Positions 6,001-9,000 of a stretch of DNA of 20,966 nt are shown in pieces; within the stretch, counting starts at the first letter, position 1; each line of letters starts with the position of its first letter. The stretch comes from a virus (Duplodnaviria; Heunggongvirae; Uroviricota; Caudoviricetes). The stretch covers positions 1 through 20,966 of IMG/VR virus record IMGVR_UViG_2737471839_000026. The stretch is one strand, 5' to 3'. Made by a program: the position numbers.

Positions 6001-9000
6001 GTTGTTGCCAAGATCGATAGTATCCATGTTGACCTCATTTCCCCTTAACGCCGGGGTAGCGGAACAAAAACCTGCTGCATAGTTAAAGTTGAACCCTGCC
6101 GTCATGTTCTTACGCCTCGGGCTGGCTACTTACCCCCTGACCACTGCCTGGTAACTCGAAGTATTGCCCTGCGTTCTGTGGGACGGGGTGGGCTGATGCA
6201 TAAACAATACCACTGCTATTTAATCATGTAAATAGCAATGCTATTATTGCAGCAAGAAAAAAACCACCCGAAGGTGGTTTTTGACAGAAATGATTAACAG
6301 CTTTTGTTTGGATACTGCCTTCGTGAGTGAACTACATTTACGATCTCGATGTTAGATGTTGTTACTCGGTAAAGTATTATGTAGTTAGGATGAGTCACTA
6401 TTTCTCGAAGACTTGGAACTCTTTCGCTCGGTGGGTACAGATAAGGGTGTTCAGTAAGTGACAAAACTGATGTTTCAATGCGTATTTTTAGTCTACGTGC
6501 AGCGGGAGGGTTTTCTTTAGCAATATAGGCTACTATCTGACGTAAATCCTCACGTGCAGAAGGTAGCCATAAAATGGGCAGCATTACTCACTCCTGTTCG
6601 TTGCAGCTAATTGAGCAATAAGGTTTTCCATTTCAGCCATTACTTCATCATGCGGAATTGCAGGACGGGGATCTGCGAGGCTTGCTGCCACTTTGGCTCG
6701 CAACCATTCGTTATAGCTGTTTTCTTGTTCGACCGTTTCAAATTCAGAAATTATCGGGGAAAGGGCTGTACTCATGTTTTGACCTCCTCAGATTAGGCGC
6801 GACGACTTTTTTGCGCAGCTAGCCATCGCGCAACGATTTCTTCAATTGATTCTTTTTTCTCCTTCATTTCCTTAAGCATTTTCTCTTTATCTTCTTTGGG
6901 GAAAGCCCTGAACGTCTGGAGCAAATCCCGCTCCATGGGGTCTATATTAAACGGAAGTTCGTTTTCCGATTGTTCCATATCGGCAGATATAGTGACAACA
7001 TTGTCCTCCCCAGATTCTTGGGGATACATCCTTACAATTTGTAACAACTCGGCCATATCTGGTCTGATTGACTCGGGAGGAACTTGCAGTAACCCTGCGA
7101 ACTTGATAACAGCCTCAAGATTTAAAGGTGTCTGACCATTTAGATAATGGCTTACAGCTCCCTGTGTCGAAAATCCCAGAATTTCTGCCGCACGCTCTTG
7201 GGTTAACCCTAGTTGATTTTTTTTCGCCGTCCAGATTTCTTTTAGTCTCTGGGCGGCTTGCAGGTCGATCTCTGACAGGGATTTTCTTTTCATACCTTCA
7301 ATTCTAATAAGATTATTAATCTCTTTGAAATAGTAGTGCTATTTACTTTCAAAAATAACAATGCTATTAATGATCGTAATGACATCACATGAGGTGAACA
7401 ATGAATCTTGGAGAATATTTGCGTTATTCCGGTATAACTCAGAAACATTTTGCTGAAATTGTTGGGGTAACCCAGGGGATGGTAAGCCATGTCATTACCG
7501 GGCGGGCGAAACTTACGGGGGAAAAAATTTTACGTTGGTGTGAAGCAACTGGCTGGATAGTAACTCCGCACGAGATTGATAGCACTTCTTATCCCAACCC
7601 AACCGACGGCTTACCTGTCGAGTGTCAGGCTAACACACAACCAGAGACGGGGGTGATTCATGAAAATCAAGCATGAACACATCCGCATGGCGATGAATAC
7701 CTGGGCGCGTTCTGATGGCGAAAAAGTTCCAGCAGCTGGAATAACCCAGGCTTATTTCGAACTGGGAATGACGTTCCCGGAACTGTACGACGACAGCCAT
7801 CCGGAAGCCCTGGCTCGTAATACCCAGAAAATTTTCCGCTGGGTGGAGAAAGACACCACTGATGCGGTTGAAAAAATTCAGGCGTTGTTACCAGCGATCG
7901 AAAAAGCAATGCCTCCTCTGCTGGTGGCCCGAATGCGCAGCCACAGTTCAGCCTGGTTTCGGGAGCTGGTGGAGACGCGGGAACGACTGGTGAGAGACGC
8001 TGATGATTTTGTTGCAGTGGCGATCGCTGGTTTCAATCAGATGAATCGTGGTGGTCCGGCGGGAAATGCCCTGGTGATGCACTAAAAGCACGGTGTTCGG
8101 AGTTTTTTTATGAGCAGCAAGCTTCATGGTCTTGTCTGGGAAGGGTGCGCCTTCACCGGCATGATCTTATCCAGGGTGGCAGTAATGGCTCGCCTTGCAG
8201 ATTACAGCAATGACGAAGGTGTGTCATGGCCTGCAGTGGAGACCATTCGTCGTCAGATTGGGGCAAAGAGTGAATCAACGGTTAAAGCTGCGATAGCAGA
8301 ACTGGAAAAGAACGGCTGGCTGACGAAGGAAGAACGTAAGGTCGGTGGGCGTAATGAAAGCAATATCTACCGTCTTAATGTGGAAAAACTCGAAGCAGCA
8401 GCAGCGGCGGCGCGTGAGGCATATAAACCGAAAAGAAAAATCAACCCGGTAAAAAATGACCCGTCAAATATTGGCCCCTCAACGGTTGACCCGTCAAATT
8501 TTGATGGATCAACAGTTGATAAAAAACAGCCGGTTAGGGGGGCGATGGTTGGCCCCGATCCGTCAGTATTAAAACCTGAGCCGTCAGATAAAAGATCTTC
8601 TTGTCCGGACGCTTCGCAACCGGACCCGCAGATGGCTGAACAGGATTTTTTAACCCGACACCCTGACGCGGTTGTGTTCAGTGCGAAAAAACGCCAGTGG
8701 GGTAGCCAGGAAGATTTAGCGTGTGCGCAGTGGATCTGGGGACGAATCGTGAGTCTTTACGAGCAGGCTGCCAGCGATGATGGCGAAATCATGCGACCGA
8801 AAGAACCCAACTGGACTGCATGGGCCAATGATGTGCGCACAATGCGGATGCTGGATGGCAGAACTCACAGACAAATTTGCGAAATGTTTGGTCGGGTACA
8901 GCGGGATCCATTCTGGGTAAAAAACGTCATGAGCCCGTCAAAGCTTCGCGAAAAATGGGATGAGCTGGTTATTCGTCTGGGGCGTTCGCCTGTACAGCGT

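Follow-up and report, generated by a model that had tools for sequence, protein, structure and literature searches.

Do the four short palindromes that bracket the repressor and toxin-antitoxin (TA) genes of a Caudoviricetes prophage act as its immunity operators, and which protein reads them? The palindromes lie in IMG/VR record IMGVR_UViG_2737471839_000026, positions 1 to 20,966 (the window, by which we mean the whole 20,966-bp stretch analysed), two of them between the gene for a 166-residue repressor and a divergent cro-like gene, and two beyond the PaaA-family antitoxin and ParE-family toxin genes that follow the repressor gene. An earlier note on this DNA had likened the arrangement to the right and left operators (OR and OL) of lambda, with repressor-antitoxin-toxin in the place of cI-rexAB. 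From the sites and their statistics, their overlap with promoters, their conservation and their covariation with a protein domain, together with analogy to related elements, we put the probability that the four palindromes are functional OR and OL operators of the immunity repressor and/or the Cro-like protein at about 85%, and binding by both proteins is most likely.

Direct reading and pattern search re-found all four palindromes where the earlier note had placed them, as two pairs with the same centre-to-centre distance of 25 bp (Table 1). The consensus AATAGCANTGCTATT (AATAGCA-N-TGCTATT) is matched with at most one mismatch four times in the window, against 0.01 matches expected from dinucleotide-preserving shuffles, and a scan of the whole window for further copies, which the note had suggested, found no additional site at up to three mismatches. 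The OR pair falls within the 107 bp that separate the repressor gene from the divergent cro-like gene, the OL pair lies just beyond a hairpin terminator 3' of the ParE gene, and the pairs are about 1.1 kb apart. Gene calls, Pfam matches and the folding energy of the hairpin bear out the repressor, cro-like, antitoxin, toxin and terminator assignments made earlier.

Both pairs are superimposed on predicted promoters. OL1 spans the spacer of the predicted leftward promoter PL and the first 4 nucleotides (nt) of its -10, with the OL1 arm TGGTATT coinciding with the extended -10, and the PL -35 opens with the last two T's of OL2; this placement recurs in 49 distinct OL regions. Transcription from PL is expected to start near 6197 and to read leftward into the ydfA-like, dicB, recE-like, xis and int genes. 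On the right, OR1 spans the spacer of the predicted promoter PR and its arm TGCTATT coincides with the extended -10, and OR2 shares 2 nt with the PR -35 and 1 nt with the -35 of PRM, the predicted repressor promoter. The PR spacer is followed by TGCTATTAA, then by a Shine-Dalgarno GAGGTG and the cro-like ATG at 7401, a layout kept in relatives. The 25-bp distance between sites can be attributed to a promoter geometry with a 17-bp spacer, and the half-site TG(C/G)TATT would be read by both the repressor and sigma-70. Counted from the predicted PRM start, the centre of OR2 (7336) falls at -42/-43, and lambda CI activates PRM from that same operator position (about -42). A terminator-like scan hit at 6211-6240 was dismissed as merely two operator arms pairing with each other.

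OR is probably tripartite, with a weak third site. The candidate OR3 lies 23 bp from OR2, within the PRM spacer and touching the PRM -10, and its position is homologous to that of the better sites ATTAGCAATCTTATT, ATTAGCAATACTATT and ATTAGCATTACAAAT, which most of 48 distinct OR regions have at -26/-27 from the repressor ATG. A third OL site was sought about 23-25 bp to either side of the OL pair and none was found, the terminator occupying one side and a G-rich leader the other. The PRM -10 ends 7 nt upstream of the repressor ATG, which leaves no usable Shine-Dalgarno spacing, and TAGAAT or TAAAAT also stands 6-7 nt before the repressor ATG in five relatives (L001, L004, L005, L009 and L011); because of this conserved placement the repressor-paaA-parE mRNA is probably leaderless.

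The repressor carries a DNA-binding domain of the lambda type. Residues ~1-92 are homologous to the N-terminal domain (NTD) of lambda cI (phmmer against the PDB, E ~1e-9, ~36% identity), and the AlphaFold model of this domain superposes on 1LMB/1LLI with a TM-score of 0.88 and a root-mean-square deviation of 1.3 Å (Foldseek). Residues E33 and E37 align with the positive-control residues E34 and D38 of lambda, where all homologues have E or D, and the recognition helix TQGAVSHYLN is invariant among homologues, which grade continuously in similarity, down to 33% identity. A predicted disordered linker (residues 93-112) leads into a C-terminal domain (CTD, residues ~115-166) modelled as helical, with a short and a long helix in residues 119-165 (AlphaFold). 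This CTD is 55% identical over 44 residues (E 2e-17) to that of authentic PaaR2 from the sister prophage CP-933P (locus L093, in which PaaR2 was recognised by its MQKKE start, as in the published paper); the CTD region is 48% identical over 87 residues to the regulator of the O157:H7 paralogue L092, and NCBIfam ties the CTD to DicA of Qin (E 1.4e-7, 27% over 51 residues). The repressor NTD gave no alignment at all with the NTDs of PaaR2 and the L092 regulator, and Pfam found HTH_3/HTH_31 only, with no S24 peptidase domain. Sequence and model thus describe a chimera in which a lambda cI-type NTD is joined to a PaaR2/DicA-type CTD without an S24 autoprotease, and because the S24 domain is missing the repressor should not be cleavable via RecA. 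The recognition helix of the Cro-like protein (TQGMVSH) resembles that of the repressor (TQGAVSH), and a homologous Cro with the conserved helix (T/S-Q-G-x-V-S-H) is encoded in 15 of 15 representative loci.

The sites accompany this NTD across the family. We fetched 91 loci, L001-L091, of which assemblies supplied 11 and IMG/VR 80; their NTDs are 55-100% identical to that of the window repressor. Regardless of the repressor CTD and of the cargo between the pairs, nearly all of these loci have one pair at positions -75/-50 relative to the repressor ATG and another 0.5-2.9 kb further downstream. A logo of the sites shows outer AATA/TATT arms with practically no variation, a strong preference for G5, C6, G10 and C11, and no preference at the centre. 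The distance between pairs follows the cargo: ~1.05 kb with PaaA-ParE, 2.9 kb with HipA_2 plus DUF3037, ~0.5 kb with a 178-residue unknown protein or no cargo, and 0.8 kb in cargo-free loci beside S24-type repressors. HigBA fills the slot between repressor and OL in the Salmonella loci L009/L010, for which no OL pair was found within three mismatches, and a 91-residue unknown protein is also among the slot contents (L005/L006, L007/L008, L009/L010, L011; window 6294-6775). By sequence, the repressor-OL interval, with its varied lysogen-expressed cargo, acts much as the rexAB position does in lambda, as a hotspot where TA or defence genes are found. Four different C-terminal modules occur with this one NTD and its operators: the PaaR/DicA-type helical domain, a whole PaaR1-like second helix-turn-helix (HTH) protein, a short helical domain and, in more distant relatives, an S24-like autopeptidase CTD (sequence motifs, and a precomputed PF00717 match on P0031). 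In the second group, the 244-245-residue repressors of L005, L007 and L056 (P0014, P0019 and P0020) have the window-type NTD fused ahead of an entire PaaR1-like protein and so have two HTHs; PaaR1-type half-sites (AAAACTGT) were sought near OR and OL of these repressors and none was found.

Going from motif to protein gave the same association. Searching IMG/VR for a single exact site gave at least 120 viral loci (1.03 Mb), the majority unrelated. Among the loci listed, 13 had a partner site 23-28 bp away and in all 13 a homologue of the NTD adjoined the pair; 106 of the listed matches were lone sites without a homologue, no locus without one had a pair, and one further listed locus had a 32%-identical homologue and no pair. 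A single exact 15-mer is thus non-specific in a large database and only paired sites are diagnostic. The earlier note had held that frequent occurrence of the motif elsewhere would speak against an operator role; for the paired arrangement this did not occur, every pair among the IMG/VR loci listed standing beside a repressor homologue.

OR and OL also change together with the DNA-binding domains between related prophages, which makes this natural exchange the strongest non-experimental evidence that the operators are cognate. The O157:H7 paralogue L092 (presumably a paaR1-type system) is 78-85% identical in nucleotide sequence to the window across ydfA, the PL leader, parE, paaA, the part encoding the repressor CTD, the 3' part of cro and ydaT, while the segment for the repressor NTD, OR and the N-terminus of Cro is unrelated. 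On the left the flank is ~96% identical up to window position 6195 and is followed by an island of ~65 bp holding OL and PL (6196-6260) that cannot be aligned. L092 repeats AAAAACTGT/ACAGTTTTT at both OR and OL, CP-933P has a third operator type with GTTTAGT-type repeats, and Qin has TGTTAG...CTAACA repeats; despite these different repeats, promoter placement is the same in all four elements. The window motif was not found within three mismatches near OR or OL of L092 and L093, and no GTTTAGT-type arrangement was seen on reading the window OR and OL, where no systematic search was made. L092, the megablast match in O157:H7, was rejected as CP-933P in view of the C-terminus of its antitoxin and its operators, which are unlike those of the paper and of PaaA2 in the PDB; the true CP-933P locus, L093, was retrieved with the PDB PaaA2 peptide. 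Judged by these sequences the window element is heteroimmune to CP-933P, and contigs of a window-type and a CP-933P-type prophage (L044 and L113) occur in one IMG genome (2698536392), as expected for heteroimmune elements.

The following scheme, which takes in binding and the order in which sites are filled, activation of PRM, looping and translation without a leader, is inferred from sequence and analogy. Dimers of the repressor would read AATAGCA half-sites through the lambda cI-type HTH, and the Cro-like protein, given a recognition helix almost identical to the repressor's, very probably reads the same sites. Binding at OR1 and OR2 would cover the extended -10 and -35 of PR and so control the cro-like gene, ydaT and the replication genes, while repressor on OR2, at -42/-43, would activate PRM; at high repressor, or with Cro, occupation of OR3 within PRM would shut this promoter off. 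PRM would yield a repressor-paaA-parE transcript ending at the terminator (6259-6282). With a geometry like that of PR, OL2 and OL1 would cover the PL -35 and extended -10 and so keep the early-left operon (ydfA-like, dicB, recE-like, xis, int) repressed. Finally, the PaaR2-homologous CTD may dimerise or oligomerise and thereby support cooperative binding, possibly with an OR-OL loop of ~1.1 kb.

Several observations weigh against this reading or parts of it. The binding of repressor and Cro is deduced from sequence and by analogy, and the covariation does not separate the two proteins because NTD and Cro type occur together in every locus. The PR -10, TATTAA, is without the usual final T and depends on its TG extension; the promoter scanner missed it because the hexamer ends in A. 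OR3 of the window has five mismatches, which is insignificant in the window alone, and positional homology is its only support. OL has two sites, compared with three in lambda and three proposed for CP-933P, and in relatives the OL sites are spaced 23-28 bp apart, a variation that fits poorly with cooperative contacts in strict phase. Oligomerisation and looping are extrapolated from PaaR2, of which the PDB holds the N-terminal domain only.

Among other explanations, the one that fares best is that the switch is a non-functional relic, its operators genuine by descent in a cryptic prophage with no regulation left. The sister elements CP-933P and Qin are indeed defective prophages, and in the Shigella sonnei-type loci L038 and L043 a variable poly-A run between OL2 and OL1 brings the site spacing to 27-28 bp and stretches the PL spacer to 19-20 bp, possibly a slippage that weakens PL in decaying prophages. 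We nevertheless consider a relic improbable for the window, where the repressor, Cro, YdaT, TA, integrase and excisionase open reading frames are intact and the sites are zero or one mismatch from consensus. PL moreover drives dicB, which encodes a cell-division inhibitor, so that selection for repression would persist even in cryptic prophages; DicA in Qin is a parallel case of repression kept in a cryptic prophage.

The sites could instead be operators of the Cro-like protein alone, the 166-residue protein binding elsewhere or acting on the TA operon only. The Cro-like protein and the repressor NTD covary equally tightly with the motif, and both have the same type of recognition helix. We nevertheless hold this explanation to be quite unlikely: the repressor has a genuine lambda cI-type DNA-binding domain whose helix is invariant wherever the motif occurs, OR2 at -42/-43 of PRM is in the place of an activating repressor, and in CP-933P PaaR2 and YdaS footprint one shared region (PMC8630535).

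It is very unlikely that the four sites resemble one another merely as duplicated or convergent promoter elements (TGnTATT extended -10s and the TT of a -35) and not as a motif bound by a protein. Half of each promoter-proximal site is an extended -10, each distal site ends in a -35, and PR/OR and PL/OL are alike over ~45 bp; the AATAGCA left arms, however, have no promoter role and are as conserved as the right arms, completing the dyad, the half-site is kept in OR3 and in the promoter-distal arms as well, and the heteroimmune paralogues retain TTGACA and TATTGT hexamers yet have entirely different repeats. Autoregulatory operators of the TA complex in the classical type II style, suggested by sites that bracket a TA operon and by the autoregulation of classical modules, can be practically dismissed, as PaaA2-family antitoxins lack a DNA-binding domain (Pfam; PMC8630535) and the pairs also occur in loci without PaaA-ParE (HipA_2 plus DUF3037, HigBA, an unknown protein, or nothing beside S24-type repressors).

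An operator role for repressor and Cro agrees with what is known of CP-933P, in which PaaR2, YdaS and YdaT act as CI, Cro and CII (Jurenas 2021, mBio, PMC8630535). PaaR2 and YdaS give DNase I footprints on OR, the 97-bp intergenic region, and PL933P, with OL operators beyond paaR2-paaA2-parE2, is repressed ~100-fold; paaR2 is leaderless by 5' RACE, PRM is activated at low PaaR2, PaaR2 has no RecA-cleavage motif and octamerises in solution, and PaaA2-family antitoxins are without a DNA-binding domain (PMC8630535). The substitution of paaA2-parE2 for rexAB and of PaaR2 for CI is explicit in Prolic-Kalinsek 2023 (PMC9986795). The lambda analogy is already established experimentally for this sister element; what appears to be new here is the recognition specificity, the combination of domains in a chimeric repressor and the breadth of the family. 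A full-text search of the literature library used here with the operator sequence found no paper that contains it and nothing relevant.

As in CP-933P, the regulator, PaaA and ParE genes of the window run leftward and the cro-like gene and ydaT rightward, operators sit in a short divergent gap with a second cluster and PL beyond the TA genes, PRM is of the predicted leaderless type, and the regulator is without S24; the regulator CTD, PaaA, ParE and YdaT are homologous and the PL leader is conserved. The window DNA-binding domain is of the lambda cI type, whereas PaaR2 has an unrelated HTH of its own (PDB 7nkv), the Cro/YdaS proteins are only 27% identical, and AATAGCA-N-TGCTATT operators replace the GTTTAGT type. 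The window has two OL sites and two strong plus one weak OR site, compared with three proposed at OL and three operators with four inverted repeats at OR in CP-933P. The parE2-like label of the earlier note is to be amended in that the TA pair is nearer the second O157:H7 paralogue (antitoxin 84%, toxin 86%) than the crystallised PaaA2-ParE2 (73% and 66%).

Lambda itself shares with the window divergent PR and PRM promoters, with OR2 at about -42 of the latter and a weak OR3 lying over it, a leaderless repressor mRNA (predicted here), and lysogen-expressed cargo closed by a terminator between the repressor gene and OL. The window operators are 25 and 23 bp apart and those of lambda OR 24 and 23. 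The differences are a 15-bp core operator of another sequence, only two OL sites, a repressor without the S24 autopeptidase CTD, for which RecA-mediated induction is not expected, an OR-OL distance of ~1.1 kb against ~2.3 kb, PaaA-ParE as cargo where lambda has rexAB, and YdaT as the CII analogue. The earlier likeness to lambda OR/OL can be kept on the strength of promoter overlap, conservation, the reverse scan and the paralogue exchange, and is to be amended in that the repressor is not a full lambda cI and OR is probably tripartite. Qin likewise has a short repressor with an HTH NTD and a related helical CTD (DicA), a divergent cro-like gene (dicC), inverted repeats between dicC and dicA as well as about the TTGACC -35 that precedes ydfA, as at the window OR and OL, and a leftward operon that starts with ydfA (DUF1391) and includes dicB; it differs in its DNA-binding domain and operator and in having no cargo between dicA and the ydfA promoter, and the window has no DicF match. 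Taken by type, the window combines dyad operators over PR/PRM, OL sites of the same type over PL and a cI/XRE HTH, as in a lambdoid switch except for S24, with a PaaA without a DNA-binding domain, a ParE, an upstream regulator with a PaaR-type CTD and ydaS-ydaT with a box, as in a PaaR-PaaA-ParE module; the PaaR2-type NTD and GTTTAGT operators of CP-933P immunity are absent.

The surrounding genes complete the picture (Table 1). The terminator closes the repressor-paaA-parE transcript ahead of OL and PL, and a hairpin with a T-run stands at the equivalent place in L001, L004 and L011. The PaaA antitoxin is without a DNA-binding domain. An OM-like box lies at the end of the cro-like gene, overlapping the ydaT start, and the published YdaT OM site of CP-933P is at the end of ydaS (PMC9986795); by sequence the box implies a PRE-like, YdaT-activated route to repressor expression. 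Leftward past OL follow ydfA-like (DUF1391), dicB, DUF1482, recE-like exonuclease, xis and int genes, and from the gene content around OR and OL the window is a lambdoid E. coli prophage. In an Rfam scan the only matches were three tRNAs, with neither DicF nor any further RNA in the PL operon. The first ~100 nt of the predicted PL transcript (CCCACCCCGYCCCACAGAAYGCAGGGCAATACTTCGAGTTACC...GGCAGTGGTCAGGGG; window ~6100-6195, minus strand) are ~96% conserved between heteroimmune prophages, recurring at L092 ~2255-2350 and L093 ~3590-3680 despite completely different operators; this segment upstream of ydfA, for which no matching Rfam family was found, may serve as a regulatory leader or as an element of the anti-termination type.

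Table 1. Operators, predicted promoters and genes of the immunity region (window coordinates)
Feature	Position	Strand	Sequence or match	Basis or remark
OL1 (putative operator)	6206-6220	n/a	AATACCACTGCTATT, 1 mismatch	Direct reading and pattern search; proximal OL site kept in relatives
OL2 (putative operator)	6231-6245	n/a	AATAGCAATGCTATT, perfect palindrome	Direct reading and pattern search; distal OL site kept in relatives
OR2 (putative operator)	7329-7343	n/a	AATAGTAGTGCTATT, 1 mismatch	Reading and pattern search; -50 from ATG in ~90 loci
OR1 (putative operator)	7354-7368	n/a	AATAACAATGCTATT, 1 mismatch	Reading and pattern search; -75 from ATG in ~90 loci
OR3 (weak candidate)	7306-7320	n/a	AATAAGATTATTAAT, reverse complement ATTAATAATCTTATT, 5 mismatches	Positional homology
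PL (predicted)	6204..6232	-	-35 TTTACA 6227-6232, 17-bp spacer, extended -10 TGgTATTGT, hexamer 6204-6209	Promoter scan
PRM (predicted)	7301..7329	-	-35 TTCAAA 7324-7329, 17-bp spacer, -10 TAGAAT 7301-7306	Promoter scan
PR (predicted)	7342..7370	+	-35 TTTACT 7342-7347, 17-bp spacer, extended -10 TGcTATTAA, hexamer 7365-7370	Reading, by analogy with PL
Intrinsic terminator	6250..6282 (hairpin 6259-6282)	-	10-bp stem, UUCG loop, U-run	-13.1 kcal/mol, z = -3.1
ParE-family toxin, 96 residues	6294..6584	-		Pfam PF05016, E 3e-18
PaaA-family antitoxin, 63 residues	6584..6775	-		Pfam PF21217 PaaA2, E 3.5e-23; PDB 3zbe PaaA2, E 2e-23
Immunity repressor, 166 residues	6793..7293	-		HTH_3 (Pfam)
Cro-like HTH protein (YdaS position), 91 residues	7401..7676	+		Pfam HTH_3
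YdaT (CII analogue), 141 residues	7660..8085	+		Pfam PF06254; 83% identical to CP-933P YdaT
YdaT OM-like box	7653-7670	n/a	GTGATTCATGAAAATCAA, one mismatch from TTGATT-N6-AATCAA	

The segment 5700-7800 is covered to at least 80% in 72 of 5,426 complete E. coli genomes, and the immunity type also occurs in Shigella and E. albertii relatives. A repressor search of genome contigs yielded no relatives, and the representative E. coli genome is evidently without a window-type prophage. NTD identity in deposited phage genomes does not exceed 52%; cI of the Stx2-converting phage F039 (L293, LC710660.1, 2495-3214), the closest repressor from a named phage, reaches that value with a helix TQGAVSQLLN. 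Its CTD is S24-type by motif, the cI-cro gap has the related half-sites ATTAGC, GCTATT and GCTAAT in a different arrangement, and a type II restriction-modification pair directly follows cI, in the cargo position.

The late region of the window holds a gene for a 343-residue S8 subtilase that overlaps one for a 144-residue protein (17947-19409, plus strand), the latter scoring 168 bits (cutoff 40) against NF038397, 'subtilase family AB5 toxin binding subunit'. Together they form a SubAB-like cytotoxin pair just downstream of three tRNA genes (16839-17085), near which an AraC/YdeO-like gene also lies (16099-16812); stx occupies the same late position, downstream of tRNA genes, in Stx phages. 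The pair is present in 11 of the 5,426 complete E. coli genomes, always chromosomal and at least 99% identical, and was not found in the phage collection searched.

No new principle emerges from this locus, which represents a heteroimmune type within a known kind of system. On balance we lean towards regarding it as a member of an undescribed immunity specificity group, in which one cI-type NTD with a tripartite OR and a bipartite OL has recombined with at least four CTD modules and the repressor-OL interval serves as a slot into which TA or defence cargo expressed in the lysogen is swapped. If this is true, the family would offer a natural series for testing how oligomerisation domains and modes of induction can be exchanged while the operator architecture stays fixed. 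The map of OR1-3, OL1-2, PR, PRM, PL and the terminator is precise and testable for the window immunity type. Because the prophage carries a rare SubAB-like toxin, control of its induction may have some medical relevance. The PaaR-PaaA-ParE "three-component TA" is seen here as cargo of a modular lambdoid switch that can exchange its DNA-binding specificity and yet keep its oligomerisation domain, TA genes and flanks, and the window element, its O157 paralogue, CP-933P and Qin form a ready specificity series for repressor-operator recognition and heteroimmunity.

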